From an uncultured Mycoplasmatota bacterium (GTDB lineage: Bacteria; Bacillota_I; Bacilli_A; RF39; UBA660), in contig CANPJT010000002.1 in NCBI GenBank assembly GCA_947574255.1, positions 273 through 64,272 on the forward strand: 64,000 bases of DNA. Reading direction: 5' to 3'. Below the pieces are notes generated by a model. That model had not been told where the DNA came from and made no database searches. It worked only from the letters and a program-made list of their open reading frames with translations. Positions 1 to 64,000 of the stretch are shown here, in pieces (the first letter of the stretch is position 1; each line of letters begins with the position of its first letter). Both the position numbers and the translations under genes were made by a program.

Positions 1-2431
1 ATATTCTATTTTTTTTAATATCTGAAAATAGATTTAATCTTTCTGTACGAGCGTTAAAAGCATTAAATACTCCGATAAAAATAAATAACGCAAAATAAGC
101 AGTCATTAAATATTCATAATTATTTCCTGGTCTAATTAAAGTTTTAAAAAGAGGTAGTTTTAAAAATAAAATACATAATAATGCTGAGTATAATCCTGTA
201 AAGATTACTTCTTTATACATATAACTATTCATTATTTCTTCATTTTTATTTTTGGGTGGTTCACACATATATCTTTCTAAAGGTGGTTCAAAGGAAAAAG
301 CAAGCCCAGCAAATGTATCCATTATCATATTTATCCATAACATTTGAATAATTGTTATTGGAGTGTTAACTCCTATAAATGGCCCAATAATGGATACAAA
401 TAAAGCACACATGTTACAGGTTAGTTGATAAATAATAAACTTACGAATGCTTTTAAATATAGTACGTCCATAAAGAATCGCTTTACTAATAGATAAAATA
501 TTATCATCTAAAATAATTATGTCGCTCGCTTCTTTACAAACTTCTGTCCCACTTCCCATAGCAAAACCAACATTTGCTTTTTTAAGAGCTGGGGCATCAT
601 TTACTCCATCCCCTGTCATTCCAACAACTAAATTCATTTCCTCTAAAACTTTAACGAGACGACTTTTATCTTTTGGTAAAGCTCGTGCTACTACTTTAAT
701 TCTTTTAATATATTTTTTGATATCTTCATCAGACATAATATTTAATTCATCACTAGTTATAACTATATCACTTTTATTTGTTAATAATCCTGCATCTTTA
801 GCAATAGAAGTTGCAGTATCTTTATGGTCTCCTGTAATCATTATAATATCAATCCCAGCTTTTTTTATTAAATCAATTCCTGGTTTTGTTTCTTCTCTTA
901 ATTCATCTTTTATAGAAATAATTCCTAATAAAACTAAATCTTTTATTTCTTCTTTAAAAATAGTTGTATTTTTATAAGCCATTACTAAAACTCTTGAACC
1001 ATTTTTTGTTAAAGATTTTACTTTATCTTCTAAAGCTGTTTTATTAACTAAAAGACGTTCTTTATTTTCTTCATCTAAATATTTAGTACATTTTGCTAAA
1101 ATAGTTTCAGCAGCTCCTTTGATAAAAATTGTTTTTTCTGGATTACCTATTTGAACAATTGAATATTTATTTTTACTATCAAAAGGAACTTTATTTATAG
1201 TTTTAAATGTTTCAAATTCATTTTTAGTTTTTAAAAATTTTAATAAAGCTCTATCTGTTGTGTTGCCACCAATAGTTTCATTTTTATCATTAAATACACT
1301 TTCATTATTGTAATAAAAAGATTGATAAATTTTTTGATAAAATTTTTCTTTTTTTAAATCTTCAATTGTTTTAAAACTTTTAAGTTTACCGCTTAGAAAT
1401 TCTGTTACTTCTAGTTTGCCTTTAGTAAGTGTTCCTGTTTTATCAGTTAATAAAACATTTAAACTTCCTGCGGTTTCGATACCTACTAACCTTCTAACCA
1501 AAACATTATTTTTCAACATTCTTTTCATATTACTTGATAAAACTAAGGTTATCATCATGGGAAGACCTTCTGGAACAGCCACAATAATAATTGTAACACT
1601 AAGAGTTAAAGCATATAATAAAGCATTAAACATGACTTCAAAATTTGTAATAGTATTTATAATAGCTGTTTTATCAAAATTATTTGCAATAACAATAATA
1701 GAAAAAAGATAAGAAACAGTAACTAAAATAGCTCCAATATAACCAATTTTACTGATTACTTTAGCAAGATTTCTTAAACGAAGCTTTAAAGGACTTGTTG
1801 GTTCACTTTCTTGAAGTTCACTAGCAAGTTTCCCATAAATGGTTTCATTTCCAACTTCTGTTATTTTAATCAAAGCATTACCATTATATACAATTGTACC
1901 TCGATAAACACAATTATTTTCAGATAATTTATTATCTATTTTACTTGTTTTTTCTGCTTCTTTAGCTTCGCCATTAATGCTTGATTCATCAACAAAAATA
2001 CGCCCATTTAATAAATAACCATCAGCTGGTATTTTATCCCCTGTATTTAAAACTACTAAATCATTTTTGACAACTTCATTTATATCAATTTCTTTTAAAA
2101 GACCATTTCTTTTTACTTTTACCTTTATTTTAGAAGCTTCTTCTTGAAGTCGATCAAAAGCTTTTTCACTTCCATATTCAGAAATACTTGAAATAAATGA
2201 TGCTAAGAAAATAGCTATTAAAATACCAATTGTTTCAAACCAATCAAAACTTTTGAAAAGAATCACTACTTTTACTGCTAATGCAATTAATAAAATTTTG
2301 ATAATAGGATCTCCTAATGATTCAATTAAGAGTGATATAAAACTATTTTTCTTTTTCTTTACTAGTTCATTGCTACCATACATTTTACGATATTTTATTA
2401 CTTCTTCTTCTGTTAATCCATTTGTATTCAT
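1..2431 (-). CDS. Cation-transporting P-type ATPase (P2-type, Ca2+/Mg2+-like); C-terminus runs off the window
   Basis: Absent from the ORF track because there is no stop codon inside the window. My minus-strand translation starts at ATG 2429-2431, preceded by GGAGGA. The N-terminus reads MNTNGLTEEEVIKYRKMYGSNEL. The phosphorylation motif DKTGTLT lies at ~1424-1444 and the hinge motif MTGDGVNDAPALKKA at ~575-619. The plus-strand ORFs 519-977, 1416-1712 and 2253-2546 are antisense artefacts. Confidence 0.9.
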   Translation of the reverse strand, partial: MNTNGLTEEEVIKYRKMYGSNELVKKKKNSFISLLIESLGDPIIKILLIALAVKVVILFKSFDWFETIGILIAIFLASFISSISEYGSEKAFDRLQEEASKIKVKVKRNGLLKEIDINEVVKNDLVVLNTGDKIPADGYLLNGRIFVDESSINGEAKEAEKTSKIDNKLSENNCVYRGTIVYNGNALIKITEVGNETIYGKLASELQESEPTSPLKLRLRNLAKVISKIGYIGAILVTVSYLFSIIVIANNFDKTAIINTITNFEVMFNALLYALTLSVTIIIVAVPEGLPMMITLVLSSNMKRMLKNNVLVRRLVGIETAGSLNVLLTDKTGTLTKGKLEVTEFLSGKLKSFKTIEDLKKEKFYQKIYQSFYYNNESVFNDKNETIGGNTTDRALLKFLKTKNEFETFKTINKVPFDSKNKYSIVQIGNPEKTIFIKGAAETILAKCTKYLDEENKERLLVNKTALEDKVKSLTKNGSRVLVMAYKNTTIFKEEIKDLVLLGIISIKDELREETKPGIDLIKKAGIDIIMITGDHKDTATSIAKDAGLLTNKSDIVITSDELNIMSDEDIKKYIKRIKVVARALPKDKSRLVKVLEEMNLVVGMTGDGVNDAPALKKANVGFAMGSGTEVCKEASDIIILDDNILSISKAILYGRTIFKSIRKFIIYQLTCNMCALFVSIIGPFIGVNTPITIIQMLWINMIMDTFAGLAFSFEPPLERYMCEPPKNKNEEIMNSYMYKEVIFTGLYSALLCILFLKLPLFKTLIRPGNNYEYLMTAYFALFIFIGVFNAFNARTERLNLFSDIKKNRI

Positions 2432-2513
2432 ATATGCTTGTCCTCCTAAAAAACTATATGTGGACAAACTATTATTTATACAAAAAAAAAATCTCTTAAA
2501 AGAGACCTTAATT

Positions 2514-3167
2514 TTATATCTTGTAAAGTTTATTATTTTTACGTGATATAGTAAATACACTAACCGCTAAAATTGCACCTGTAATTATAACTATATAAGG
2601 AACAAAATTTCCTGTTTGTGGGTTTGATAAACATTCATTATTATAAACTTCTTCAGTTACTTCTGTTCCGTTTTTGCCATAATATTTGCCATTTTCTACA
2701 CGACAAGTCGGAGTTTTTGGATTATCACAAATAAATTGGCCATCTTTATTAAAGCATTGGGTGAAGTTAATATCACAATTTTTTGTGTTATCTGATTTAT
2801 CAATATAGAATACTATAGTTGCAACTTCAGATTTAGTATTACTAATTGCAGAAGATGGTTTCCAAGTAATAGCTGCTCCAGTTGATGTTGCACTATTAGT
2901 TGTTAAACTCCATGAATTATTTGTTTGAACATCTTGAACTTTAATAATTGAAGTATCATATGATGCGGTTATTCCATACATTTCTAATGTATTATTTCCT
3001 GTAACATTAACTGCTATATTACAAGTTTTACTATATTTGTATTTTCCGTCTGGTTGAGCAAGTTCTACATCATCCCCACAACTATATTCAAGAGCAACTG
3101 CAGCATTAGCACGCATTGGTAATACTATCATCATTGCAAAAACGATTAGTCCGATAAATTTTTTCAT
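2514..3167 (-). CDS. Cell-wall-anchored surface protein with an NPQTG sorting signal (candidate sortase B substrate)
   Basis: N-terminal signal peptide (MKKFIGLIVFAMMIVLPMRANA). The C-terminus has NPQTG (nt 2610-2624), a hydrophobic helix (NFVPYIVIITGAILAVSVFTI) and a basic tail (SRKNNK). It is divergently adjacent to a class-B-like sortase. Confidence 0.75.
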   Translation of the reverse strand: MKKFIGLIVFAMMIVLPMRANAAVALEYSCGDDVELAQPDGKYKYSKTCNIAVNVTGNNTLEMYGITASYDTSIIKVQDVQTNNSWSLTTNSATSTGAAITWKPSSAISNTKSEVATIVFYIDKSDNTKNCDINFTQCFNKDGQFICDNPKTPTCRVENGKYYGKNGTEVTEEVYNNECLSNPQTGNFVPYIVIITGAILAVSVFTISRKNNKLYKI

Positions 3168-16090: not shown

Positions 16091-16158
16091 TTTCGCTCCT
16101 TTATAATATTTTATTTCTTATTCTTAAAATTTATTATATAATTAATTAGGTGATAATC

Positions 16159-16968
16159 ATGAAATATATTATTTATATTCTTTTAGGTATTTTACAAGGT
16201 TTTACAGAACCATTACCGATTTCTTCTAGTGGACATTTATTTTTATTTAAAAATATTTTTAATACTAATATGCTTAATGATTTAAATTTTGAAATATTTG
16301 TTAATTTTGGTTCTTTTTTAGCTATTTTACTTATATTTTTTAAAGATATTATAAATCTTATTAATGATTTTTTTACTTATTTATTTAATAAAAAGAAACG
16401 CAAAGAAAGTGTTAATGGATTTAAATATTGTATGCTTATTTTAATTGGCAGTATCCCTGTTGGAATTGTAGGTGCTTTATTTAAAGACCAAATCGAAAGT
16501 ATTTTAAGTATTAAATTTTTGGGTTTTGCTTTTTTAATAACAGCAATAAGTTTATTTTTAGTAAAAAACGTTAAAGGAAATAAAGATGATAAAGATATAA
16601 CTATTAAAGATGCTATTATTATTGGTCTTCTCCAAATGGTTGCTTTAATTCCTGGAGTTAGCCGTAGTGGTGCTGTTTTAGTTGGTTGTCTACTTTGTAA
16701 ATTAAAACGAGAATCAGCATTAAAGTATACTTTTATGCTTTATTTCCCTGTTAGTATCGCTTCGATGGGATTAGGAGTATTAGACTTTTTAGAAAATCCA
16801 GCAAGTTCTAGTTTAATTTTATCATATTTTTTAGGAATGTTTGCAGCAGGAGTTGTGACATATTTTTCATACAAATGGTTAAGTGAATTAGTTAAAAAAG
16901 GAAAATTGTGGAAGTTTTCAATTTATTGTTTTATTCTCGCAATATTTATATTTATATATTTTAGATAA
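16159..16968 (+). CDS. uppP: Undecaprenyl-diphosphate phosphatase
   Basis: BacA/UppP motifs: GFTEPLPISSSGHL and PGVSRSG. ~270-aa polytopic membrane protein. ATG 16159 is preferred over the track's GTG 16150. Confidence 0.9.
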   Translation: MKYIIYILLGILQGFTEPLPISSSGHLFLFKNIFNTNMLNDLNFEIFVNFGSFLAILLIFFKDIINLINDFFTYLFNKKKRKESVNGFKYCMLILIGSIPVGIVGALFKDQIESILSIKFLGFAFLITAISLFLVKNVKGNKDDKDITIKDAIIIGLLQMVALIPGVSRSGAVLVGCLLCKLKRESALKYTFMLYFPVSIASMGLGVLDFLENPASSSLILSYFLGMFAAGVVTYFSYKWLSELVKKGKLWKFSIYCFILAIFIFIYFR

Positions 16969-17024
16969 ATAAAAAAGGAATCAATTTAGTTTTGATTCTT
17001 TTTTTATTTATTTCATACTATTTT

Positions 17025-18273
17025 TTAGCTTTCTAAAACAAACGGTGTTGTGCTTGAGCCATCGCTCTCACTCTTAATTCCTATCTTTGAATCTAGATAT
17101 ACGACTGGATAAACGGCTCTATTTCTATTAGAATCATTATTATGAACAGCTCCGTAAGTTTCAACATAGAAAACACTACTACTATTCAAACCAGGCATTA
17201 ATGTCCATTGTTCTTTATCACTTTTAAATAGCCAGTCATTAATATAACAGCGACTACCACCATGCCAATAATTACTAGTACTTAAATTAAAACTTAAACA
17301 TGTTTCTCTACTTGTTGCTTCGCCTCCCGCAGTTGCATATCCGTAATCACTTGGATACATTAAGCCAACAAGCCCTGTCCATTTTGTTGCATGACCACTA
17401 TATATTGTTGTCCCTCTTTCTTGAAAATACGAATCAACCGCTTTATAACTTAAATTAATATTCCCACCACCTAAACTCCATACTGATTTGCTTATCATGT
17501 TCATGGCATTAACAGTTAAACCAGTCTCACTAAAATCACATGCTGTTGTTGCTCCATTACTTCCACTTGGACAATCTCCACTTGTTCTATTATAGTAGGC
17601 TCCTTCATTTAAGACTTTTTTTAAAGCACTTGTACTCCAATTATTATTTCCAAAAAAACCTACATTGTCCCATGCATATGAGCCTATTTTCTCACTTCTT
17701 ATTAGTTTTACCTTATCTGAGACTGTTCCATCAGCATTCTTTATATCTTTCATTACTCCTATTATTCGCCATTTTTCACATGTACTTTCATCATTTGAAT
17801 CTGTACAATTAAAATTTACGTAGTTATTAGGATCTGCTCCAATGTACCTTAAGTTGCCATAATCGTCTTCTACTATCTCTTCTGATGTTTTAGATAATCT
17901 TTTTAAGGTTCCTACAAAACTATTGTCTCTAAAATCAATATTACAACTTATTTCTGTATTATTATTAGTATTTATATTTATTAATCCCCATAAATCCTCA
18001 TTCCATTCGGCTGTTACGCCATCTTCACATGTTACGCTATTTACCGTATATTTACTGCCCTTTGTCGGAAATACATTTCTTACTTTGGTTCCATCTATAG
18101 TATACGCTATCTCACTTGTTTGGTTTGCATTATATATTTTAGTATAATCATCCTGGTATAAGTTATCTCTCTTATATAGTACTACTGTACCCCCCCCCCA
18201 GGATGATTAATGCACCTAGAGTTAGGAGGGTATTCTTTAATTTTTTATTTTTCTTAAAATTTTTTAGTTTCAT
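17025..18273 (-). pseudogene. Frameshifted (phase-OFF as sequenced) membrane-anchored secreted protein of unknown family; paralog of 63196-64000 and distant paralog of 33041-34180
   Basis: ATG at 18271-18273 follows the RBS AGAGGGA and encodes MKLKNFKKNKKLKNTLLTLGALIILGGG. After a G10 run (plus-strand C10, 18190-18199) this frame stops. The +1 frame is open from the run through the track ORF 17025-17753 (TVVLYKRDNLYQ...DPNNYVNFNCTDSNDESTCEKWRIIGVMKDIK...). A G9 run would give one ~415-aa ORF. Confidence 0.8.
18190..18199. repeat. C10/G10 homopolymer tract inside the 5' end of a coding region
   Basis: The sequence reads gta-cccccccccc-agg at 18190-18199. It is the only long G/C homopolymer I noticed in this very AT-rich window. 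Confidence 0.95.
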
Positions 18274-18342
18274 TTTTATCCCTCTTTCTATTATTTAGAT
18301 TATATCATACTTTTTTATTCTTACAATACTAATTTTAAATTC

Positions 18343-20447: not shown

Positions 20448-20485
20448 AAAAGTTAAAAAAACAGATGATTAATAACTAATCATCT
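20448..20485 (-). terminator. Intrinsic terminator closing the T4SS/Tad locus
   Basis: Minus-strand RNA forms AGAUGAUUA-guuau-UAAUCAUCU followed by GUUUUUUUAAC. The stem overlaps the T4CP stop codon. Confidence 0.6.
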
Positions 20486-22656
20486 ATAAAAAAGTCATCA
20501 AAAAATTCATCGTCAGTTATAACATTATCATTAACTATAACACTATCAACATCTACATTTATTTGCGGTTTATCGTTTGTTTTAGAATCTTTTTCTTCCT
20601 TAAAATCTTTTGGTGTTTCTTTTTTTATAATTTTTTTAGAATCAAAGAAAGGCTTTTCTAAAATATCTTTTTTAGGTTGGTTAGAAATACTTTCCATCTT
20701 CTTTTGACGCATTTCTTCTTCATCTAATTCTTTTAGTTTCTTATCAATATCTGCTATCATTTTATCAATATCTTCATTACTCATCGGAGGATTTTTTGAA
20801 AATGGATTATTTAAAGGATTTCCTAATGGATCCGCAAAAGGATTAGCCATATTATTCATATTTTTAAAAAAAGGAGTATTCATTCCTGGAAGATTTGGCA
20901 TGAATGAATTATTATCTTTATTTTTTTCCATATCTTCCATCATTTTTTTTCTTTTTTCTTCTGAAACATAATTTTTTAGATCAAATAGTTTAATTTCTTT
21001 TTTTTCACGTGTTGGTAATTCTGCTGTTTTTCTTTCAATTCCCCAATTTATTTTAAAATCTGGTTCTAATTTAGTTTTAAATGGATCTTTTCTCAAGCGT
21101 TTTATTATTACTTCAAATAATTTCATTCTTTGTAAATCAGTTACAGTTACAAGAGGAGTTGATGCCGTTTTATCTTTATCTTTTGATTTTACTTCTCCAC
21201 ACATTTTACTTATTTCTTCAAGTGCAGCCATTTCGGTACTTATTAAATAAACTAAGTTACCACAATTACCTTTGATTACTTCAGCAACTTCTTTACCATA
21301 AACATCATTTAATTGAGCAAAGTTTTGAATAATAAATGTAAATCTTATATCACGACTACGGGCAGCAGAAACCATAGAATCAACGTCTTTTAAAGGTGGC
21401 ATATTAGCAAATTCATCAAGAATAAAGTTAGTTCTAAATGGCAGTTTGCCACCTGTTTCTTTTGCAACATCTATTAAAGTTTCATAACATTGTTTAATAA
21501 AAATGGTAAGTAAACTATGATAAGTTGTCTTTTCATCATGGATAATCATAAATACAGCTGTTTTTTCTTTACCAATATCACGCATATCAAAATCACTATA
21601 GGCAAGCATTTCACTTAATAATTCTCGAGAAGCAAAAGTTCTTACTTTTTGTTTAAATGTTGATGTAATACCACCTTGAGTATCTTTCGGAGCATTAACT
21701 GTTCCTGAGGCAAAAATATATGCACTTGATTCTGCACCTTTTAAATTAAAATATTCTTTAATATATGTACCAGCAGCAAACCTTTCTTCTCCAACAGAAC
21801 TCATATAATTAATAGAATTCATATTAACTTCTTCTTCTTTAGCATCCATAAATAAACCTAAAGCCAGTCCAGAGAAATAATCAGCAGCACTATTTTCCCA
21901 AAATGGCTCTCCTTTATTATTAGGATCTTTTACGATATTTAAAGCTACGTCATCTAAAAGTTCTGTTGCTTTATCAACATTACCATTCTTATAATAACGA
22001 TAAGGTAGAGTTAATGGATTCCAAGCGTTACCATTAATAGGATCACGAAAGTTTAAAACAATTATTTTGTATCCCTGCTCTTTTAAATATTCTCCACTAT
22101 ATTTATAAATTTCTCCTTTTGGGTCAGTGATAATCATACTTTCGCCTTTTTTAGCAAGTAAATTAACCATTGGTTTTACTATTGTTTCAGTTTTACCTGA
22201 TCCTGTAGAACCAATTACAAGATTATGATATTCTCCATTATCAACCCAGATATCTTTTCCATTATTTATTAGCGGAATTCCAGCAGCTTCCACTTTAGGG
22301 CTAGTGGCATCAACATGCTCAACGTTTTTGTCTTCTTTCATTTCTTTATCTTTAGACCATCTAGAATATCCTTTTTCTTCTTTATCTTTAATATTTAAAC
22401 CTACTCCATGACCTTTTTCTTTATCAAAAATATAGGAAGAGACGGAAGAAAAAATAATGATTAAAGCAGCGAAGAATATACACATTGTAAGTGTTAAATT
22501 GCTACCTATAAAAGCTGGAAATGGATTTAATCCATAAAAACCACCTTCATTTATAAATGAAGTAAAATTTAAAACCGCAATTGCACAAAGATAAAGTAAA
22601 AATATACAAAATATAACAAAAATCATAAAATCTTTAGGTGATATTCTAAATTTCAT
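20476..22656 (-). CDS. Type IV secretion coupling protein (VirD4/TraG/TcpA-like T4CP)
   Basis: Two N-terminal TM helices, Walker A VIGSTGSGKTE and a Walker B-like FILDEFANMP. 726 aa with a low-complexity C-terminal tail. This is the TraG/VirD4 architecture. Confidence 0.85.
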   Translation of the reverse strand: MKFRISPKDFMIFVIFCIFLLYLCAIAVLNFTSFINEGGFYGLNPFPAFIGSNLTLTMCIFFAALIIIFSSVSSYIFDKEKGHGVGLNIKDKEEKGYSRWSKDKEMKEDKNVEHVDATSPKVEAAGIPLINNGKDIWVDNGEYHNLVIGSTGSGKTETIVKPMVNLLAKKGESMIITDPKGEIYKYSGEYLKEQGYKIIVLNFRDPINGNAWNPLTLPYRYYKNGNVDKATELLDDVALNIVKDPNNKGEPFWENSAADYFSGLALGLFMDAKEEEVNMNSINYMSSVGEERFAAGTYIKEYFNLKGAESSAYIFASGTVNAPKDTQGGITSTFKQKVRTFASRELLSEMLAYSDFDMRDIGKEKTAVFMIIHDEKTTYHSLLTIFIKQCYETLIDVAKETGGKLPFRTNFILDEFANMPPLKDVDSMVSAARSRDIRFTFIIQNFAQLNDVYGKEVAEVIKGNCGNLVYLISTEMAALEEISKMCGEVKSKDKDKTASTPLVTVTDLQRMKLFEVIIKRLRKDPFKTKLEPDFKINWGIERKTAELPTREKKEIKLFDLKNYVSEEKRKKMMEDMEKNKDNNSFMPNLPGMNTPFFKNMNNMANPFADPLGNPLNNPFSKNPPMSNEDIDKMIADIDKKLKELDEEEMRQKKMESISNQPKKDILEKPFFDSKKIIKKETPKDFKEEKDSKTNDKPQINVDVDSVIVNDNVITDDEFFDDFFIDD

Positions 22657-22752
22657 TCATCATTCCTCCGTTTATAACATTATTAATTATACTATAATTT
22701 TTTATTTATTCAAAGTTAATTATTTTAGCTGCCTACATTATACTACATGCAA

Positions 22753-22789
22753 ACAAAAAAAAGAATACTTAAATTTAATTTGTATTCTT
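22753..22789 (-). terminator. Intrinsic terminator between the lipoprotein gene and the T4CP gene
   Basis: Minus-strand RNA forms AAGAAUAC-(13 nt)-GUAUUCUU followed by an 8-U run. Confidence 0.6.
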
Positions 22790-22792
22790 GTA

Positions 22793-23476
22793 TTATTTGT
22801 TATTTTTAGTTTTATATACTATTAGTCCAATTAAAATCAAGAAAAAAACGGCTAAAAATATAAATATTATTGGAGATGGAGTTTTAGATCTATTAATTTC
22901 ATTTGCTTCTTTTTCTTTTTTAAATTTGATAATAATTCCACTATTTTCATAATTATCTCTTGTTATATTCCATTCATATGTATTGCCATTAATTTTACTA
23001 GCATTATGAGTAACTACAGGATTGGCAATATTTATTTTGATATTAACTTCATTTAAACTAGGATAATTTTCCATACATAAGAATTTGGAACTAGTTGATA
23101 AAGAAATTGTTTTTTCTTTTTCATCTTTATTTACATAAAAGCTTTCATAACAAGTTTTTATTGAATTATTATCATAAATATTTTCACTATTAAATTTATA
23201 GGATAACTTTTTTAGATAATAGTTGTTATTTAATACTAAATTAGATTTATAGTATTCTACACCTTCTAATTCTTCTGGATATTCTCCTGAATCTAAATCA
23301 CTATAAAGGGCTTTTATTGGCCAAGGATCATTAAATAATGATTGGCTTTCACTATCGTTTTCTGCTTGAATATAAATACTTTCATCAAATTCATTATTTT
23401 CATTGATTGTAAGATTATAATCAACACTACAACCTGTTAGTAAAACTAGTATTAATAATAAACTAAGTTTCTTCAT
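22793..23476 (-). CDS. Lipoprotein with a C-terminal TM anchor (T4SS accessory, unknown role)
   Basis: MKKLSLLLILVLLTGCS (lipobox) and a C-terminal helix (PSPIIFIFLAVFFLILIGLIVY). The track start at 23494 is probably too long; I prefer the Met at 23474-23476. Confidence 0.65.
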   Translation of the reverse strand: MKKLSLLLILVLLTGCSVDYNLTINENNEFDESIYIQAENDSESQSLFNDPWPIKALYSDLDSGEYPEELEGVEYYKSNLVLNNNYYLKKLSYKFNSENIYDNNSIKTCYESFYVNKDEKEKTISLSTSSKFLCMENYPSLNEVNIKINIANPVVTHNASKINGNTYEWNITRDNYENSGIIIKFKKEKEANEINRSKTPSPIIFIFLAVFFLILIGLIVYKTKNNK

Positions 23477-25787
23477 TGGACCCTCCTCTTGCATTACACA
23501 TATTAGTAAAGTCTGAATTTCTAGCAGCTGTACTATAATAATTACTCATAAGTGCAAGTTTTCTATTAGCACTAAATGGTACTTTACTAAATACTACTCC
23601 ATAAGCTTGTCCCTGAGCATGAACTACAGTATAATATTCTTCTTCTTGATGAATAGCTGTTATAATTACAATATGATTAAATCCTCGACTTCCAGGAGTA
23701 ACAATAAAATCGCCAATTTGAGCTCGTTCATCACCTAAATTTGTTATTTCTCCTAAGCTACCCCAACCAGTTGCACCTAAACCTTTCCAAGAAAATCCAA
23801 CATTATAAAGTGCCCAGTTAACGAATCCAGAACAATCTGGTCCTGTTGGACCAAAATCAGGTCCATTTGGTCCCCAAGCTGCAGGAACTCCATATGTACT
23901 TGGTGCAGAACCATGCATTCCACCCCAAATATAATTGAATTTTTTACCATATTTAGCTAATTCGGAAACTGCAGTTGCCGCAACATATGCTACTCCTGTT
24001 CCTGTTCCTTGATGTTTACATCCATAGTCAATTATTTTGTTATTATATTCTTCTAAAGAAGAGTTTTGACTAATAAGAAACGATTCTATAGTTTCATTTA
24101 AAAATGTTGCTCCCTCAGTTGATCCATCCAATCCAGCTCCAGCATCACAATTATCTCCACCTAAATTAAATATAGCCATACGATGATTAATCATCTTTTT
24201 AGCTTGCCAATCAATATAAGCTTGTTTTTCTTCATCAGTTGTTAAAATACATCCTGCTCCACCATTAGAACTTGCACATCTATAACTAGGATTACACCTA
24301 CTATAATTAGGTCCAAAAATATCAGCTAATGTTAAATAATAACATCCACCATCATCAGAGCTTCCAGGATTAGCTAAATATGTACCAATATAAGAATATA
24401 CCTTAGTAAAAGCATCTAAACTTCCTTTATCATGAACATATTGTAGCATTTTTTTGACACCATCTTCAAAGGTATCAAAACACACTCCAGTCAATTGACC
24501 ATTATAAACTCCATAACCATAAAAATTATTACAACTAAGAGTAAAATTATTATCTCTCCAACCATATTCTTTTCTTGCAATAATATAAATTAATTCAGGA
24601 TTGGCTTCCATTTCTTTACCCAAATCATAAATTTTTCCAGCATTTTCAGTAAATATACGTGCTGTTGTTGTATTTACATTGGCTAAATGTGCTGTAACTA
24701 AAGAAATAAATTCTTCTTTACTTAATGGAGTTTCAAAAAAATTTATTTCTGAACAATCTGAATTAGCGGTTCCAGTTTTAATAGTATAGTATTCAATATC
24801 TTTACCATAATAGTATTCTAAAACTCTATATAAATCATATAAAGAATCTTTTTTTTCAAGTAAGTATTTAGAGCCATAAAGACTTAATGATTCTAAATTA
24901 GTAGAATTTAAAACTTTTTTGGTTGGAACATTTTTTTCTTCTACCCAAGAAGCAGGGATAATTTGTCCACCTTCCTTATTTTTATTCATCATGTAATAGA
25001 CACCAATATTTTCTTTTCCATCAACATTTTCTTGAGATTTTTTGATATAAGAAAAAGTATCATATTTGGCATCAATTGCTTTTTCTCCACGAGCTATTAT
25101 TAAGCCACCTGTACTATTTACCGCTTTATTTATATCTTCGTATTTTTCTTCGCTACCAGTTAATTCAGTAAAGTTTTCCGAATTATGTTCTTTTAAAACA
25201 ACACAATTTTCAGGGATAGAAGAAATGATTCTACTACGAGTAGCAATACTCATTAATTCATAAACAACCTTGTTATCTACATCATGAGCATTTTGATTAT
25301 CTTGCCAAATTATTCCTGCAATATATTTGTTTATATCATAATCTTTATAACTAAAACGAGTAGTATCATTTATATCAACATCTTCTGGATTCGTTATAGG
25401 TGAATAACTATTTGATTTTTTATATTCATCAGTTTCTGATACTAAATGTATTCTATTACACTTATTATTTCCAGAATACATTTCAGCTTTTGGAATAGTT
25501 GTTCCACCCATATCAAAATCCATTGCAATAATAATTATCATAAAAATGAGTATTATGACAATAATTATGCCAATTACGAGAAAAGGATGAGTCAATAAAA
25601 AGGCTAAAATTTTCTTCTTTATAAAAGCCTTAACTTTAGCTTTTTTTTTCTCTTCCTCATCTTTTTCTTCATTTAATGAATCATTTGTTTCTGGTTCGTT
25701 TTCAGCTGGTTGTGTTTTTTCTAAATTATTATCAGAACCATTTTCTAATTCTTCTGATTCATTATCTAACTCTTCATCGTAGTTCAT
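23463..25787 (-). CDS. Bifunctional cell-wall hydrolase (muramidase/glucosaminidase-like + NlpC/P60), CwlT/TcpG/PrgK-like
   Basis: Acidic N-terminus and one TM helix. The middle domain reads IIARKEYGWRDNNF...NNFYGYG (glycosidase-like with a catalytic Glu). The C-terminal NlpC/P60 domain reads YIWGGMHG...GPDCSGFVNWALYNVGF...NHIVII. Confidence 0.8.
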   Translation of the reverse strand: MNYDEELDNESEELENGSDNNLEKTQPAENEPETNDSLNEEKDEEEKKKAKVKAFIKKKILAFLLTHPFLVIGIIIVIILIFMIIIIAMDFDMGGTTIPKAEMYSGNNKCNRIHLVSETDEYKKSNSYSPITNPEDVDINDTTRFSYKDYDINKYIAGIIWQDNQNAHDVDNKVVYELMSIATRSRIISSIPENCVVLKEHNSENFTELTGSEEKYEDINKAVNSTGGLIIARGEKAIDAKYDTFSYIKKSQENVDGKENIGVYYMMNKNKEGGQIIPASWVEEKNVPTKKVLNSTNLESLSLYGSKYLLEKKDSLYDLYRVLEYYYGKDIEYYTIKTGTANSDCSEINFFETPLSKEEFISLVTAHLANVNTTTARIFTENAGKIYDLGKEMEANPELIYIIARKEYGWRDNNFTLSCNNFYGYGVYNGQLTGVCFDTFEDGVKKMLQYVHDKGSLDAFTKVYSYIGTYLANPGSSDDGGCYYLTLADIFGPNYSRCNPSYRCASSNGGAGCILTTDEEKQAYIDWQAKKMINHRMAIFNLGGDNCDAGAGLDGSTEGATFLNETIESFLISQNSSLEEYNNKIIDYGCKHQGTGTGVAYVAATAVSELAKYGKKFNYIWGGMHGSAPSTYGVPAAWGPNGPDFGPTGPDCSGFVNWALYNVGFSWKGLGATGWGSLGEITNLGDERAQIGDFIVTPGSRGFNHIVIITAIHQEEEYYTVVHAQGQAYGVVFSKVPFSANRKLALMSNYYSTAARNSDFTNMCNARGGSNEET

Positions 25788-25808
25788 TATATCACCTACT
25801 TTTTACTG

Positions 25809-27593
25809 CTATAATCCTCCACCTGATCCAAATGAATCTAATTCTTCTTGAGTTACAACAATATTTATTCGCATTCTTCTGTTACCACAAACAAATAGTC
25901 CTTCTCCTTGATTATAATATTTTATACTATCTTTTTCATTATCATTTAAATCAATTAATTTTGATAAATCATCTGTTGCTTGTTTACGAAGTCCCATAAT
26001 TAAATAATAAGAGGCATTATCAAATATTGCTTTACCATGAACTATTACATTAGGTGCAGCAAAATCAGTTGGTTGTTGAGTTATAATGATAGTTCCAGTA
26101 TTGTATTTACGACTACGTCTTTGGATTTGAGCTAAGAATTCAGCGCCAAGTTCATTTTTAGTAGACATAAGAACATGAGCTTCGTCAACACACATAACAG
26201 TATCTATATTTTTATCAAGACAAAGTCCCCAAGCATATTTCAAAATATTAAAAAATAAGGCATTTTTAATATTTTCATCACTATTCATTAGTTCACGAAT
26301 ATTAAAAACAATAAAATCGCTTTGAATATTCAATGTTGTATGACCAGTAAAATAATATCTTAATTCTTTAACAAGTGGTCTAACTTTTAGTTCTAAACGT
26401 TCCATGACATCTCGTTCATGAGTTTGTTCAGGCATCGATAAAATTCGCCCTTTAATAGTTGCATAAACATCATCAAAGGTTGGATAATCACTTGCTTTAA
26501 ATTTAGTAAAGTCAGAGTCATAATCAATTTTATAACGTTTATAAGTATCTTGTACTACTTCACTAAACATGGTTAGTACATCTTCTTCAATTGATGGTGA
26601 GTAATATTTCATGAAAGCTTTTAGTTGTTGTAAAGTTCTAGTTAAAACTGTATAACCTAGACCTTGTTCAATTTCTTCTTCATCAGCATCAACAACAATT
26701 TCAAGAGGATTAATCATTCCAAAATCTCCACCTTTACCAAGATCTAAGAAATCTCCTCCAATACTTCGAGTCATTTCAGCAAGCTCACCTTCAGGATCAA
26801 TACAAATTACTTTATAACCATTTCTTAAATGACTTCTAATTAATAATTTTGCTGCGGTTGATTTTCCACTTCCGCTTGTCCCCAACATAATCATATTAGC
26901 ATTGTTACGATTGTTTTCTTTTTTTATTTTATATAAGAATTGATTAAATAAAACTACTCCTCCAGAGAAATCAACACCAAATAATACACTATTTCCTGGA
27001 TCTTTAATACTATCGAAAATAAAGGGATACATGGCTGCCATCGTAACTGATGGTATTGGTGTTCCTACACGATTTTCAATATCTTGTTTAGGGAATATTG
27101 GAATTATTGATTTTAATGCTTTTTCTTGTTCAAACATTAATGATACACCACGCATACCAAGACCATCTAAATAGTTACGAACTTGCATTTTTTTCATTTC
27201 TAATTCTTCTTTGCTATCAGCAGCTATAAAAACATGCATTTGAAAATCAAAAATACGAGCTTGAGTAGCAGCAAGCATTTGAATAAACTGTTCTAATGAT
27301 TCATAATCTTGTCTAATTCTTTCTTGAATAGTACGATCATTCTCTGTTTGAAATCTTTGCTTTAAATCAGCAATTTCTTTATTTAACATTTTTTGTAATG
27401 TTGAAAATTCAATAGGAATATGTTTTATAGCAATTTTAACACCAGATATATTTGTTAAATTGGCTAAATAGCCTTCTGATATATATTTTGGAAAAGTAAT
27501 TATTGTTAATATTGTACAAAATTTTCCACTAATTACCATTTCCGTTGGTTTAAATTCTATACCTTTTGGGGCTAATTGACTTTTTATGTTCAT
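25809..27593 (-). CDS. VirB4-family T4SS ATPase, C-terminal ~3/4 (ConE/TcpF/PrgJ-like)
   Basis: Walker A MLGTSGSGKST, Walker B VMCVDEAH and IIITQQP. Its start codon overlaps the stop of 27590-28153 in an ATGA arrangement. Confidence 0.85.
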   Translation of the reverse strand: MNIKSQLAPKGIEFKPTEMVISGKFCTILTIITFPKYISEGYLANLTNISGVKIAIKHIPIEFSTLQKMLNKEIADLKQRFQTENDRTIQERIRQDYESLEQFIQMLAATQARIFDFQMHVFIAADSKEELEMKKMQVRNYLDGLGMRGVSLMFEQEKALKSIIPIFPKQDIENRVGTPIPSVTMAAMYPFIFDSIKDPGNSVLFGVDFSGGVVLFNQFLYKIKKENNRNNANMIMLGTSGSGKSTAAKLLIRSHLRNGYKVICIDPEGELAEMTRSIGGDFLDLGKGGDFGMINPLEIVVDADEEEIEQGLGYTVLTRTLQQLKAFMKYYSPSIEEDVLTMFSEVVQDTYKRYKIDYDSDFTKFKASDYPTFDDVYATIKGRILSMPEQTHERDVMERLELKVRPLVKELRYYFTGHTTLNIQSDFIVFNIRELMNSDENIKNALFFNILKYAWGLCLDKNIDTVMCVDEAHVLMSTKNELGAEFLAQIQRRSRKYNTGTIIITQQPTDFAAPNVIVHGKAIFDNASYYLIMGLRKQATDDLSKLIDLNDNEKDSIKYYNQGEGLFVCGNRRMRINIVVTQEELDSFGSGGGL

Positions 27594-28153
27594 TCTGGCA
27601 TCACCGTTCCTAAACTTGTTGGCTTACCGCCATTAAAGAAATTGTCGATAAGCATACGTAAATCATTATTTGATACTTGAGTTGATGTAAGACCACATGT
27701 GGATAGATTTGCAATAAGATTGTGAATTCTTTTTTGAATAGTTTCCATTTTTTTATCCTTGAATAAGATGAAATATTCTGTATCTACAACACTATATTCT
27801 GCACTCATAAACATATTGGCCTTATTAATATCTTGCATTATCAATTTACGCATGGTGCCATTTGAGGCATTGTTATATAAAAGTTGAAGTTGAGATAAAT
27901 AAATATTGATGTCAACTGGTCTATCTGCGACAATTAACCAAAATTCATAATCTATCATGTTATAAAAATTTCTTAAATTATAGATAACATTTTCTTGAGT
28001 TCCACGATCTAAGATAAAGATATTTCTTGGAGTAACTTTGACCCCTGTTACATATTCTCCACTATCTAGTTGAATCATTCCATTTAAGATTTGTTTTACT
28101 GGAATCCAATCTTCTGCATATTTACTAATAACTTTAGCATTTTTATTTTTCAT
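27590..28153 (-). CDS. VirB4 N-terminal-domain-like protein (separate ORF)
   Basis: 187 aa. DWIPVKQILNGMIQLDSGEYVTGVKVTPRNIFILD resembles the N-terminal region that is normally fused to Gram-positive VirB4 ATPases. It is translationally coupled (ATGA) to 25809-27593. Confidence 0.6.
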   Translation of the reverse strand: MKNKNAKVISKYAEDWIPVKQILNGMIQLDSGEYVTGVKVTPRNIFILDRGTQENVIYNLRNFYNMIDYEFWLIVADRPVDINIYLSQLQLLYNNASNGTMRKLIMQDINKANMFMSAEYSVVDTEYFILFKDKKMETIQKRIHNLIANLSTCGLTSTQVSNNDLRMLIDNFFNGGKPTSLGTVMPE

Positions 28154-28454
28154 CGTTTATACACCACCCTTTCCAATAATATCTTTTTCTTCCCATTATG
28201 AATGTTACAATGTTAGTTATTAATTGTAATACATTATGGTAATTTGGAACTGGCATTACTAAGAATGAAGCAATTAGTGCTGGGGATAATATTAATAATA
28301 TTGAGCTAATACTCATTGCAGAATTAAATATAAATAACATTACAAGTGTAAATAAACATCCTGTTGCAAAAATTATTAAATCAATCCATGTAAACCAACC
28401 TAATATTAATTTTGATTTCTTAGAATTAGCGGGAATTAAGTAATTAGTATTCAT
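28143..28454 (-). CDS. VirB3-like/PrgI-family small membrane protein
   Basis: 103 aa with two TM helices, sitting immediately upstream of VirB4. Size, topology and position are as in Gram-positive T4SSs. Confidence 0.6.
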   Translation of the reverse strand: MNTNYLIPANSKKSKLILGWFTWIDLIIFATGCLFTLVMLFIFNSAMSISSILLILSPALIASFLVMPVPNYHNVLQLITNIVTFIMGRKRYYWKGWCINDEK

Positions 28455-28476
28455 TTAAGTTTCCTCCTTTTTATCT

Positions 28477-30531
28477 TTATTTATTATTATTTGCTTCTTG
28501 GCGTTTTTGTGCTTCTTTATATTCAACAGACATTTGATCTCTTCTTAATTGATCTGAAGCTTTCTTTTTTTGATGACTCATACCATCTTTTGTTTGACTA
28601 GCCGCAGTATGAGTGAAATCTACAACTGTACCACTAATACTGTCAATATACTGCCCAGAAAGAGTATCATATTCTACATTTCTTAAACTGCTTCCTTCTA
28701 TCATTTTATATAAATCATCTGCTTCTACAATTCTGTTCGTACTTTTATCAATTATTTGATTTCCTTTTAATTTTAAATTTTCTACCATTGACACATCAAT
28801 CCCGATGTCTTTTGCATATTCTGGATTTTGTTTAGCTATTTGAGCGATATTATACATTGCATATGCGGCAGATTGTGAATTATTTCTAATAGAATCCATT
28901 CTAGACTTTAACATATTTCCTTTTAATTGATCAATTGCAGCAGCTACACTTTGTCCTTCATAAGTTGTTACACCTGACGCTTTTAAAGCTTCGTATTTTT
29001 GCAATTGATTTTTCATCGCATTATAATTAGGATTCTCATAAATTGCCTCATATTCTTTATAGCTATTTTTAAACTCCTCTTCAAATTTAGTCTTTCTTAA
29101 AATACTTGCAGCACCTCCTGTTGCCCAATTTTTAATACCTAAACCACTATCTGCTATATGTCCTGCTAAAACCCCTTTAATTGTTCCACCATGGTTAGCT
29201 TTATAAGATTCTCTTTTATTTCTGTTTTCAATAGTTTGAGTAACTCCTTTACTAGCACTATTTCGCATATCAGTAAAGTTTTTAGCACTTCTTGCTCCAT
29301 ATCCTCCTCTTGCTGCACCTGAAAATCCTCCAGCGACACCACTTAGTGCTCCGCCAAATAAGTTTCTAGCAACACTTCCAGCAGTTACATTTCCTGCTGC
29401 ATTTTTCCAGTTATTTTTGTTTGCCCATTTGTTACTTAAATTTCTCACCATCGATGTTGCTCCTGCACCAATTAAACCACCAGCAACAAAAGCACCACCA
29501 TCTGCTAATTTTTGGCGTACACCAAGTTTTATATTTCCAGCATCTACTCCAATTATTTCGCCAATCAATTTTGGCGCTTGTTTACCAAACGCAAATATAC
29601 CTAAAATGACTATTATTTTGCCAAATAATCCTAATCCCTTTAAATTTATTATATTTGTGAGTATCTGTGAACATAAAAATGCTATTATGAACATTATAAA
29701 TATTCGAACAAATACCTCGAAATAAGTTGCAGACACTTTTTTAACATAATTATCAAAAACACTCTTTTTCTCAGGTATTATTCGCATCATAATTGGAATT
29801 GGAGATATAATTTGATAAAATGCTAATTTTACTACTCTAACTCCCATATCTAAACAAAAAGAGAAAATTACATATACTAAAAAGGCCCCACATAAAGTTC
29901 CTATAAGAGGGGTGTAAGATGCTTCATCTGGATTATCTGCAATAACTTCAGTTGCATATGTTATGTCTAAAAAACTTACTTCTTCTATATCATTAGCAAT
30001 TATCGCCTCTTTTAAATCTCCCCAAGTATCAAAATCTTTATGGCTTATTTCAGCATCTTCTGGTAAGTTTTGAGCAAATGATTCAAAAAGAGTCAATGCT
30101 GTTCTTCTTCCTACAGAAGTTAAGTCATTATTTGTATTTCCAAATACTATTTTATCAATTATACCATCTTCAATTATAATATTTTGAATTCTAAATGCAT
30201 ATGTAAATAAACTAGGTACTATAGCAATTAAAATAAGAGAAATAATTAAATTTGTTACAATTTTACCTGTACCTTTAGTTAAGTCATCAGGATTTACAAG
30301 GGCTTTTAACAATGAATAAGCTAGATAAAATAACATTACTACTCCAATAATAACTAAAAATCGGTTAGCTATTTCTTCATAGACTTTATCTGTTATAAAT
30401 TCTGTACTAGCTAAGGAATAAAAAAGATCATATAATTCACTAATTAGCCAGTAAACTAAAGAATCTAAAAGCATAAAGAAACCATTTAAACCATGAGTAA
30501 AAATATTGCTTAAAATTCCAAGAGTTAGCAT
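28477..30531 (-). CDS. VirB6-like polytopic T4SS membrane protein (ConG/TcpH/TrbL-like)
   Basis: 684 aa with at least 6 hydrophobic helices in the N-terminal ~400 aa. These are followed by Gly-rich stretches (GGLIGAGATS, GGALSGVAGGFSGAARGGYG) and a soluble tail. It sits next to the VirB3/VirB4 genes. Confidence 0.6.
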   Translation of the reverse strand: MLTLGILSNIFTHGLNGFFMLLDSLVYWLISELYDLFYSLASTEFITDKVYEEIANRFLVIIGVVMLFYLAYSLLKALVNPDDLTKGTGKIVTNLIISLILIAIVPSLFTYAFRIQNIIIEDGIIDKIVFGNTNNDLTSVGRRTALTLFESFAQNLPEDAEISHKDFDTWGDLKEAIIANDIEEVSFLDITYATEVIADNPDEASYTPLIGTLCGAFLVYVIFSFCLDMGVRVVKLAFYQIISPIPIMMRIIPEKKSVFDNYVKKVSATYFEVFVRIFIMFIIAFLCSQILTNIINLKGLGLFGKIIVILGIFAFGKQAPKLIGEIIGVDAGNIKLGVRQKLADGGAFVAGGLIGAGATSMVRNLSNKWANKNNWKNAAGNVTAGSVARNLFGGALSGVAGGFSGAARGGYGARSAKNFTDMRNSASKGVTQTIENRNKRESYKANHGGTIKGVLAGHIADSGLGIKNWATGGAASILRKTKFEEEFKNSYKEYEAIYENPNYNAMKNQLQKYEALKASGVTTYEGQSVAAAIDQLKGNMLKSRMDSIRNNSQSAAYAMYNIAQIAKQNPEYAKDIGIDVSMVENLKLKGNQIIDKSTNRIVEADDLYKMIEGSSLRNVEYDTLSGQYIDSISGTVVDFTHTAASQTKDGMSHQKKKASDQLRRDQMSVEYKEAQKRQEANNNK

Positions 30532-30549
30532 GTGTCATACTCCTTTCTA

Positions 30550-31638
30550 TTATTTAATATCACAAACACCAAATTCAATACCAGCAAGTTCTAATAAAAC
30601 CTCAAGAAGTGTTGGTAACAAAAATATTAGAACACCAATAATTAATCTTTTACCTAATTTATTAGTTACTTTTTTTATTTCATTTGGATCTTGAGCAGCT
30701 AAAGCTTTGATAAAATCAACAACTGACAAACCAATTATTAAAATTGGAACAGCAAATCTAATCAAAGATAAAATTTGTTTTAATAAAGTACCAAATTTAC
30801 CATTAAAAATATTATCACAATCTATATCATTAGTTTCCAAATCTAAGTCTTCTTTTTCTTCTTTATTAGGATCATCTTTAGAATTTTTAAAAGTACACTT
30901 CCCTTTTCGCCAACGACATTCTTTTCCTTCTTCATCTCTTTCCTTACATTGATCTTTAGTTAAATAATCTGTACAAATAAATAAATTCTTTTTTTCACAT
31001 TTATTTGTTGTATCATTCCAACGACATCTTCCTGAATCAGTAAGTGAAGGACAAGATTCCTTTGTTATATAATCAGCACAAGAAGATGGTCTTTTACAGA
31101 TTTTTTTTTCTGTATCTTTTATACAGACATTCCCTTGAGCATCAGTTTTATTAACACATTCTTCATATGTGTATTCTGTACAACTTCCCTTTTTGTCAAG
31201 AACTTCTTTTGATTCAGTATTTTCTATAATATAAGACTTGTTTTTAATTTTTTTTTGTTGATTTTCTAAAATACTTTTTGAATAAGAAATGTATAATTCT
31301 TTTTTTTCACCAATATTAATTAATGGTATTCCTTTTTTGTAAGAAACTAGAATATAAGTAGGACATAATTCTTTATTTGATGATATTTCTGTAGCTAAAT
31401 AAGAATTTTTAGTTTCTGATGACCATAATCCACAATTAACACTTTTATTAATGCTATTAATGTCAGGCCATTCTTTTATTGTTGCTGAACAATTTAGATT
31501 TTTCTTTTTATCTACAGTAATATTAACGATAACATTTACCCCATTAGAATCATATATACATTTTTTACCTTCTGCTGCTGATACTATTCTTGGATATAAT
31601 ATTATTAATAATAAGAAAATTATTTTAAATTTTTTCAT
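30550..31638 (-). CDS. Secreted Cys-rich protein with a C-terminal VirB2-like two-helix membrane module (paralog 1)
   Basis: Signal peptide (IVSAAEG). Three tandem ~30-aa Cys-rich repeats at aa 153-248. The C-terminus FAVPILIIGLSVVDFIKALAAQDPNEIKKVTNKLGKRLIIGVLIFLLPTLL aligns with 31814-32944 and 34232-34639. Confidence 0.6.
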   Translation of the reverse strand: MKKFKIIFLLLIILYPRIVSAAEGKKCIYDSNGVNVIVNITVDKKKNLNCSATIKEWPDINSINKSVNCGLWSSETKNSYLATEISSNKELCPTYILVSYKKGIPLINIGEKKELYISYSKSILENQQKKIKNKSYIIENTESKEVLDKKGSCTEYTYEECVNKTDAQGNVCIKDTEKKICKRPSSCADYITKESCPSLTDSGRCRWNDTTNKCEKKNLFICTDYLTKDQCKERDEEGKECRWRKGKCTFKNSKDDPNKEEKEDLDLETNDIDCDNIFNGKFGTLLKQILSLIRFAVPILIIGLSVVDFIKALAAQDPNEIKKVTNKLGKRLIIGVLIFLLPTLLEVLLELAGIEFGVCDIK

Positions 31639-36767: not shown

Positions 36768-36783
36768 TATATCACTTCCTCAT

Positions 36784-37023: not shown

Positions 37024-37072
37024 ATTCTATAACTCCCTTATTTTCTTTTCTCTTTTAATTTTTCAGAATATA

Positions 37073-37348: not shown

Positions 37349-37408
37349 TTTTTATTTTCCTCCTCTTTTTTAAGGATTAGTAGCAATAGCTGCAAATATA
37401 CTTATATA

Positions 37409-37556: not shown

Positions 37557-37621
37557 TCCCTCCCTATTTTTTACTTTATTATTATATCATTTTTTATTTA
37601 TTATATCAATAATTTATATTA

Positions 37622-52790: not shown

Positions 52791-52880
52791 AATAATAACT
52801 ACTAAATATTTTTCTTCGTTTATTTATTTATATTTATATCATATTTTTTTTATTACTTCAAGAATAAAATAAAAAAAATA

Positions 52881-63195: not shown

Positions 63196-64000
63196 CTATT
63201 TTAATATAAATGGTTTTTCACTTGAACCATCATTTTCGTTCTTAATTGTAATATTTGAATTTAAATAAACAACAGGCTTTACATCCTTATCATAAGTAAC
63301 ATGATTTCCTCCAGATGATCCCCAATAATTTATATCAAAAGCAAGTAGACTATTAGATTGGACAGGTGTAATTGACCATTGAGTTTTATCTTTTAACCAT
63401 ACCCAGTCATTTTCTATACATTCACTATTCCAATTATTATTTAATGAAGTAGTTATACAAATTTCTCTACTTACTGTAGAACCTCCCTTAGTCGCATATC
63501 CATAATCACTTGGATATATCAATCCAACTCTCCCTGTCCATTTTGTTGCATGATCATCAGGTACGTTTTCTCCTCTTTCGACCTCATAAAATTCTTTTAC
63601 TGTCGAAAATGATTCATTTTTACCACCTAACTTCCATACTGATTCACTTATCATATTCTTAGCTTCATTTGTTAACCCTGTCTCACTAAAATCACATGGT
63701 GTTGTTGCTCCACTATTTCCATATGGACAATCGCCGCTTATTCTATTATAGTATGCTCCTTCATTTAATATACCTTTTAACGAAGCTGTACTCCAATTAT
63801 TATTTCCATTACTATTCCAAGTCAAATTCCCAATACTTTCGCTTCTTATTATCTTAACTTTATCTTCTTTAGTTCCATCTGGATTCTCTATATCTTTCAT
63901 TACTCCTATTATTCGCCATAATTCATTATTAAATGATACATAATTGTTAGGGTTTGCTCCTATATATCTTAAATTACCAAAGTCATCTTCTACTAGCTCT
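63196..64000 (-). CDS. Secreted protein, paralog of 17025-18273; N-terminus lies beyond the window end
   Basis: The track ORF starts at an internal Met. The same frame stays open to nt 64000 (...ELVEDDFGNLRYIGANPNNYVSFNNELWRIIGVMKDIENPDG...). It is strongly similar to 17025-18273 along its length. Confidence 0.75.
   Translation of the reverse strand, partial: ELVEDDFGNLRYIGANPNNYVSFNNELWRIIGVMKDIENPDGTKEDKVKIIRSESIGNLTWNSNGNNNWSTASLKGILNEGAYYNRISGDCPYGNSGATTPCDFSETGLTNEAKNMISESVWKLGGKNESFSTVKEFYEVERGENVPDDHATKWTGRVGLIYPSDYGYATKGGSTVSREICITTSLNNNWNSECIENDWVWLKDKTQWSITPVQSNSLLAFDINYWGSSGGNHVTYDKDVKPVVYLNSNITIKNENDGSSEKPFILK

Follow-up and report, generated by a model that had tools for sequence, protein, structure and literature searches.

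We examined a 64,000-nucleotide (nt) stretch of contig CANPJT010000002.1 from an uncultured Mycoplasmatota bacterium (the window), and in particular a minus-strand gene at positions 17025-18273 that is interrupted near its 5' end by a run of ten G residues (G10; C10 on the plus strand, 18190-18199). The gene is likely to carry a slipped-strand poly-G contingency switch, captured in the OFF state, and to be one member of a multigene surface-protein family. Starting at the ATG at 18273, the minus-strand open reading frame (ORF) codes for MKLKNFKKNKKLKNTLLTLGALIILGGG up to the G10 run, from which it is read as GGGYSSTI before it terminates, giving a peptide of 33 amino acids (aa; 18172-18273). 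When tract length was varied in silico, G9 produced a single ORF of 415 aa that continues into the 242-aa ORF at 17025-17753, and G12 one of 416 aa, while G8, G10 and G11 were out of frame and led to a stop codon no more than six codons past the tract. A preliminary description of this DNA had proposed a start codon with a good ribosome-binding site, a signal-anchor segment running into G10, early termination with ten G residues and read-through with nine, and each of these elements was confirmed. It had also placed the tract exactly at the junction between signal anchor and ectodomain, which is incorrect: the GGG codons lie within the hydrophobic segment TLLTLGALIILGGGTVVLY, near its outer end.

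Under the proposed mechanism, slipped-strand mispairing at G10 during replication would add or remove one G. With G9 or G12, ribosomes would read from the ATG at 18273 through the tract, placing Gly-Gly-Gly(-Gly) inside the transmembrane helix, and the ON product would be a signal-anchored protein of 415 or 416 aa whose external part is predicted to comprise a small beta domain and, for ligand binding, a C-type-lectin-like (DUF6273-like) domain. A tract of G8, G10 or G11 would end translation within six codons, so that no ectodomain would be made. If many paralogs behaved in this way, a population could display shifting subsets of surface proteins, and the benefit might be evasion of host immunoglobulin A (IgA) or of phage, or niche adaptation.

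The tract does not look like a product of base composition. GC content of the window is 26.1%, and G10 is its only G/C run longer than 6 nt, the next longest being a C6 at 44634-44639; in dinucleotide-preserving shuffles even a G8 is expected only 0.02 times per window, which upholds the earlier statement that such a run is improbable by chance. Nor is it explained by the peptide that it encodes. CTG accounts for 0.6% of Leu codons and GGG for 7.8% of Gly codons in the window, and one paralog (L035) encodes LLGVGI at the corresponding place through CTA GGA GTA GGA, with no tract. The peptide therefore does not require the tract, and because CTG and GGG are rare and L035 is tract-free, it is the nucleotide sequence CTG-GGG-GGG-GGN itself that is kept, and the peptide does not account for it. 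It is also possible that G10 is a homopolymer miscall, the true tract being G9 (or G12) and the gene intact; the gene might then still be a contingency locus, but one not caught OFF. For most platforms, no sequence is harder than a long run of G or C, and a perfectly kept downstream frame is what an expressed gene would show. The window, however, also contains 37 A/T runs of 8-9 nt within ORFs that remain uninterrupted (coding density 87%), and there is therefore no general homopolymer problem in the assembly; G10 is the only homopolymer of at least 8 nt that breaks a reading frame.

The best database match of the restored protein, P0001 (90% identity), occupies the same position between RmuC and BacA genes in the mouse-gut metagenome-assembled genome (MAG) MGBC109233 (GCA_948479395.1, labelled 'uncultured Bacilli bacterium'). 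Nucleotide identity between this region and the window is 83-88% (about 86%), which indicates a sister species. The tract of the ortholog (locus L004) is G11, also out of frame, with an open frame downstream, so that both orthologs are 1-2 nt off an in-frame length, as two miscalled genes would be. Over the 1164 nt past the tract the two genes differ by 90 substitutions and one 3-nt indel, with zero stop codons; dN/dS, the ratio of non-synonymous to synonymous substitution rates, is 0.41 (Fisher p=1.3e-4), and in a simulation of 90 random substitutions the frame stayed stop-free in 1.2% of runs (P=0.012). Because no stop has arisen after 90 substitutions and dN/dS is 0.41, the frame behind the tract is, judging from the aligned sequences, under purifying selection, although both captured alleles are OFF.

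These data bear directly on the possibility that the gene is a plain pseudogene, that is, a birth-and-death paralog permanently inactivated by a 1-nt insertion in a run of Gly codons. Both orthologs being out of frame would fit such an inactivation, and other paralogs are indeed decayed (two stops each in L007 and L089, a mid-gene frameshift in L079). No further lesion, however, is present in 388 codons of either species despite the 90 substitutions between them. The promoter, ribosome-binding site and start codon are intact and conserved: the promoter-like site matches the consensus at 10 of 12 positions, has the TG of an extended -10 element and contains no G tract; a similar sequence also precedes paralogs; and AGAAAGAGGG is conserved before paralogs L004, L005, L007, L010, L012, L079, L084, L085 and L089. 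The first 75 nt of the coding sequence are the best-conserved part among paralogs (82% versus about 70% nucleotide identity). The tract itself is retained against codon bias in nearly all paralogs, and its length differs between the orthologs. A plain pseudogene is thus a quite improbable explanation.

Tracts were surveyed across the family. Among the 2069 database relatives of the restored protein no protein has a name, and Pfam domains are almost absent; when species-representative genomes were scanned, 436 relatives were found, from which 80 loci were kept, at least 28 of them from the single small MAG MGBC109233. In 83 related loci, all G/C runs of at least 7 nt consisted of G when read along the matched family gene, never of C, and nearly all of these runs lay at the 5' ends or in the promoters of family genes. 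In the clade of the window gene the tract falls at the same codons (..L-G-G-G..) in every tract-bearing gene. The ten tract-bearing clade genes comprise one G8, three G9, five G10 and one G11; four are in frame and six out of frame, and the downstream frame is fully open in five of these six (Table 1). The preliminary description had suggested comparing tract length across relatives and looking for decay, and the outcome favours phase variation: the ortholog has G11 rather than G10 and shows no decay, and paralogs and relatives range from G8 to G11, both in and out of frame. Such differences between independent assemblies at homologous tracts (8-11 nt, some in frame) argue against a miscall, as does the fraction out of frame, which is about the two-thirds expected of freely drifting tracts and not the near-zero expected of ON genes that are rarely miscalled. 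We consider a miscall unlikely. The same description had pointed to a second family member within the window, at 63196-64000, and this paralog is real, with 55% aa identity to the restored protein over residues 132-414; among the fetched loci there was no ortholog of it with a visible 5' end.

Decayed family members served for comparison. In addition to L007 and L089, L013 has a stop at codon 166, and the five internal stops in these three genes (three TAG, one TAA and one TGA) are each one GC-to-AT transition from a Trp or Gln codon of the homologs (Trp to TAG or TGA, Gln to TAA). The three genes are, at the level of sequence, a positive control for the pseudogene test, and the window gene looks unlike them; the decayed copies look like birth-and-death turnover in the family. 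L089 is ON at its tract, yet dead. Since conserved Trp positions are where the stops of decayed paralogs occur, a variant genetic code (code 4, or a Trp reading of TAG) was considered, but it was rejected: TGA terminates six ORFs of the window, and TGG provides all 137 Trp codons counted. In MGBC109233 many copies are truncated where a contig ends, within conserved coding blocks of which KSYNILRGKIPDFSSGDIEL and ELWRIIGVMKD are examples. The idea that the tract itself causes assembly breaks was likewise rejected, as the MGBC109233 contigs break within these conserved blocks and not at the tract; the family thus fragments short-read assemblies, and recombination between copies may occur. When the N-terminal 136 aa were used for a homology search, P0121 was the one protein returned, a scan of metagenome DNA for the 5'-cassette pattern of the paralogs gave 0 matches, and exact-protein look-ups of the 242-aa ORF, RmuC, P0004 and P0028 found none on record.

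A further explanation is recoding, in which slippage of RNA polymerase, or +1/-1 slippage of the ribosome, yields full-length protein at any tract length, so that the tract tunes expression and there are no heritable states. A 10-nt homopolymer fills the RNA-DNA hybrid, and a P-site tRNA-Gly re-pairs perfectly in the shifted frames; recoding would also explain the preserved frames of OFF alleles. However, no stimulatory structure was found (the best fold of 106 nt around and after the tract has z=-1.7, and 9 of 200 shuffles equal it), yields of such slippage are usually low, and tract lengths differ between genomes, as they do in DNA-level switches. Recoding is moreover compatible with slippage in DNA and would only make the OFF state leaky. 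As an alternative to the poly-G switch it is highly improbable. A frameshift-stimulating RNA structure was tried as a candidate and rejected on the basis of the same z value and of an 8-bp stem that is not conserved in the ortholog. This stem corresponds to an inverted repeat, CATCCTGG / CCAGGATG, at 18198-18205 and about 18149-18156 of the minus strand, which flanks the tract and the OFF-frame stop; given a z of only -1.7 and the disruption of the stem in the ortholog, the repeat is probably due to chance.

Tracts of a second kind were found in another clade of the family, whose members start with MKLEKFK and come from MAGs labelled Candidatus Ventrenecus or 'uncultured Tenericutes/Bacilli'. 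Here runs of G6-G12 precede the start codon, with TTGACA on one side and (TGn)TATAAT on the other. In L024 the G9 run gives a spacer of exactly 17 nt, and in most other loci the spacer is 20-22 nt; in some paralogs of the clade the tract is interrupted or degenerate at the same place. From their position these tracts look like promoter-spacer switches. Long-form family members have a G10 either just after the ATG (L013) or in the promoter (L049). With tracts in coding sequences and in promoters, poly-G is thus recurrent in the family at two mechanistic positions. A metagenome scan for the promoter-tract pattern returned three contigs, all unrelated. L013 has a further G10 at 871-880, in a short ORF (MKEEKDISTGINPGGG...) with no recognisable downstream coding frame. 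In L039 a G12 at 1224-1235 lies between TTGACA and TGATAAAAT, and is followed at 1332-3004 by genes for an 81-aa membrane protein and a 472-aa protein (GFWVGKFETG..., ...FRLILTP) directly before a family gene; the arrangement may represent a co-regulated operon.

The restored protein begins with a Lys-rich tail and a 19-aa hydrophobic segment. An AlphaFold2 model of the 388 residues behind the tract (pLDDT 86.6, pTM 0.85) is confident and globular, with a disordered linker, a small beta domain, a helix and a large alpha/beta domain. Foldseek comparison with the Protein Data Bank (PDB) gave one significant match, the IgA peptidase of Thomasclavelia ramosa (9qa6; E=1.9e-6, prob 1.00, 334 aligned columns, TMq 0.42), and weak local matches to the C-type lectin domains (CTLDs) of Lcl, LOX-1, CD94 and CD23. 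The 9qa6 match, for which the aligned range within 9qa6 was not reported, presumably falls on the N-terminal domain of the enzyme. This domain has been annotated as DUF6273 (PMC12402451) and described as C-type-lectin-like (PMC12237041), and DUF6273 is a scaffold diversified by diversity-generating retroelements (DGRs) in phage receptor-binding proteins (PMC10743442). Three relatives (P0051, P0118 and P0081) reach sub-threshold DUF6273 scores of 20.5-21.1 bits against a cut-off of 23.5, and a profile search of PDB sequences returned only noise. The cysteines are all paired and conserved. At 17787-17822 of the minus strand (residues about 151-162), a Cys-containing insertion, NFNCTDSNDESTCEKW, shared with the ortholog, takes the place of the NNELW of most paralogs and is possibly an extra disulfide loop; the distant relative P0051 has a similar insertion. 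The restored protein has no HExxH motif, its residues 1-80 contain no Cys and hence no lipobox, and Tandem Repeats Finder detected no repeats in 17025-18273. From the model and the N-terminal segment, we infer a signal-anchored, extracellular, ligand-binding protein. Involvement of a DGR was rejected: a blastn search of the gene against the window found only the paralog and the terminator hairpin and no template repeat; a reverse transcriptase was not sought outside the window.

Several points weigh against a poly-G switch in a lectin-like surface protein. The defining property of such switches is length heterogeneity within a population, and the lengths reported here come from assemblies, not reads. 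The three public assemblies of the ortholog all have G11, are 100% identical and are probably not independent, and two OFF orthologs are also what two homopolymer miscalls or two recent inactivations would give. Several paralogs in relatives are plainly decaying, and the family contains pseudogenes; MAG assemblies of multicopy families are error-prone, with many copies truncated where contigs end. Exposure at the surface and a lectin-like function are predictions, and the restored protein had no meaningful match in Pfam or NCBIfam scans, DUF6273 (PF19789) being unmatched at E<=1.

The candidate switch resembles several known systems. Slipped-strand poly-G/C contingency genes are established in Campylobacter jejuni, Helicobacter and Neisseria (PMC7168839, PMC2823697, PMC5084427). 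Features in common are an AT-rich genome, a run of 8-11 G/C residues in the 5' portion of a gene for a surface protein, ON/OFF control by reading frame, tract lengths that vary between strains or paralogs, and many loci per small genome. The host here, in contrast, belongs to uncultured low-GC Gram-positive-type gut Bacilli, the protein family is unrelated, and switching, which is known in those genera, is a candidate property. In the opa genes of Neisseria (CTCTT) and the outer-membrane protein genes of H. pylori (CT), repeats lie in the region coding for the leader peptide. The window gene shares with these a repeat inside the hydrophobic export signal, where in-frame changes are tolerated (here G9 to G12, one extra Gly), and membership of a multicopy family with a conserved 5' end; it differs in having a homopolymer instead of a penta- or dinucleotide repeat and probably an uncleaved signal anchor instead of a cleaved leader.

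Among mycoplasmas, Vaa of M. hominis has a poly-A tract in the 5' coding sequence and Vlp of M. hyorhinis one in the promoter spacer. These belong to a related reduced low-GC lineage, and both modes recur here, with tracts in the coding sequence in the window clade and between -35 and -10 in the other. The window tract, however, consists of G instead of A, the protein lacks a lipobox Cys and tandem repeats in its ectodomain, and the organism possesses peptidoglycan genes, among them PBP5 and BacA. Having neither lipobox nor tandem repeats, the window protein is, by sequence, outside the variable lipoprotein families of Mycoplasma (Vlp/Vsa/Vsp). An intragenic poly-G slippage switch has also been described for the sortase-dependent pilus of Bifidobacterium breve (PMC9187656), a Gram-positive gut commensal in which a G tract likewise governs ON/OFF expression, in that case of a surface colonisation structure. 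That system concerns a pilus subunit and two pilus clusters in a high-GC genome, as against a signal-anchored lectin-like protein with dozens of paralogs. With the DUF6273/CTLD proteins (9qa6 and DGR phage proteins) the window protein shares the predicted fold of its large C-terminal domain, a scaffold repeatedly recruited for variable ligand binding; unlike them it has no peptidase domain, and variation would arise from paralogy and poly-G switching rather than from retro-mutagenesis.

A broader reading is that uncultured low-GC gut Bacilli with small genomes have an undescribed and very large family of C-type-lectin-like (DUF6273-like) surface proteins with a signal anchor, that the window gene is one of its members, and that the family as a whole is run by translational and transcriptional poly-G switches; we regard this as evenly balanced. 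Hosts of the family carry the labels 'uncultured Bacilli/Tenericutes', Candidatus Ventrenecus and Coprobacillus sp. CAG:605. If the reading is true, these commensals would have combinatorial surface variation like that of Mycoplasma and Campylobacter, built on a scaffold that phages diversify with DGRs. Switching throughout the family would mark its members as proteins used at the interface with host, phage or IgA, and would explain both their routine mis-annotation as truncated ORFs and the breaks they cause in MAG assemblies. The connection with the DUF6273 C-type-lectin scaffold, found as the N-terminal domain of the IgA peptidase and as a DGR target, follows from the structural model and suggests a role in ligand binding. 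To our knowledge, phase variation by homopolymer slippage, although textbook material for a few pathogens, is hardly documented in the uncultured reduced-genome Bacilli that are common in the guts of mice, chickens and humans. In literature searches, phase variation was not found described for this lineage, and a search on DUF6273 yielded phage/DGR studies, an IgA-peptidase paper and a proteomics paper, none of them on this family.

Table 1. Features of the poly-G gene and of related loci. Positions are those of the window or, for loci with L numbers, of the locus; ON and OFF refer to the reading frame at the tract, and 'open' to the frame after it.
Feature	Position	Strand	Description
Promoter-like site	18299..18326	-	TTGTAA (18326-18321), 16-nt spacer, extended -10 TGaTATAAT (18307-18299)
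Ribosome-binding site GAAAGAGGG	18280..18288	-	6-nt spacer to ATG at 18273-18271
5' coding segment MKLKNFKKNKKLKNTLLTLGALIIL	18200..18273	-	Start codon, Lys-rich cytoplasmic tail, first part of hydrophobic signal anchor
G10 homopolymer (plus-strand C10), putative slipped-strand switch	18190..18199	-	G9/G12 ON; G8/G10/G11 OFF
TAA stop of G10 (OFF) frame	18172..18174	-	Ends 33-aa peptide
Ectodomain reading frame	17025..18191	-	388 codons and TAA (17025-17027), open from tract; other two frames have 49 and 66 stops
Predicted contents of ectodomain frame	17025..18191	-	End of transmembrane helix, linker, small beta domain (about 18113-17925), C-type-lectin-like/DUF6273-like domain (about 17918-17028)
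A/T-rich hairpin (GAATCAA...TTGATTC), T run after	16968..16998	-	Local inverted repeat
Second family member (paralog)	63196..64000	-	5' end beyond window; intact as far as visible
Clade tract, window gene			G10; OFF; open
Clade tract, L004 (ortholog)			G11; OFF; open
Clade tract, L005			G8; OFF; open
Clade tract, L007			G10; OFF; two nonsense codons (codons 74 and 194 after tract)
Clade tract, L010			G10; OFF; open (sequence with Ns)
Clade tract, L012			G10; OFF; open
Clade tract, L079			G9; ON; later mid-gene frameshift
Clade tract, L084			G9; ON; intact, 422 aa
Clade tract, L085			G10 then A; ON; intact, 405 aa
Clade tract, L089			G9; ON; two nonsense codons (codons 101 and 198)
Promoter tract, L018	2947-2956		
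Promoter tract, L024	2875-2883		
Promoter tract, L029	2947-2956		
Promoter tract, L042	2949-2958		
Promoter tract, L059	2947-2957		
Promoter tract, L049	2309-2318		
Promoter tracts, L026/L050/L057	upstream regions		
Family loci in MGBC109233			L004-L017, L019-L022, L025, L030, L031, L035, L037, L038, L046, L056, L067, L079

The hairpin downstream of the gene probably acts as a terminator both for it and for the convergent BacA-like gene (16150-16968), as judged from its sequence; a consensus terminator scan made no call there. Near the poly-G gene, the minus strand at 20476-31638 carries a Gram-positive-type conjugation or type IV secretion cluster. It encodes a coupling protein of the VirD4/TraG type (726 aa), a VirB4-like ATPase (594 aa) and a protein of 774 aa that has a CHAP/NlpC-P60 hydrolase domain, and it includes several further large ORFs with no Pfam match; synteny with the sister species holds for the coupling protein and for the gene next upstream. 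Two intervals, 978-2513 and 36768-37621, have no ORF of at least 100 aa and no tRNA or Rfam match. A T-box leader (Rfam RF00230, 99.8 bits) lies at 52645-52825 on the minus strand, upstream of the ORFs at 52063-52608 and 50834-52066.

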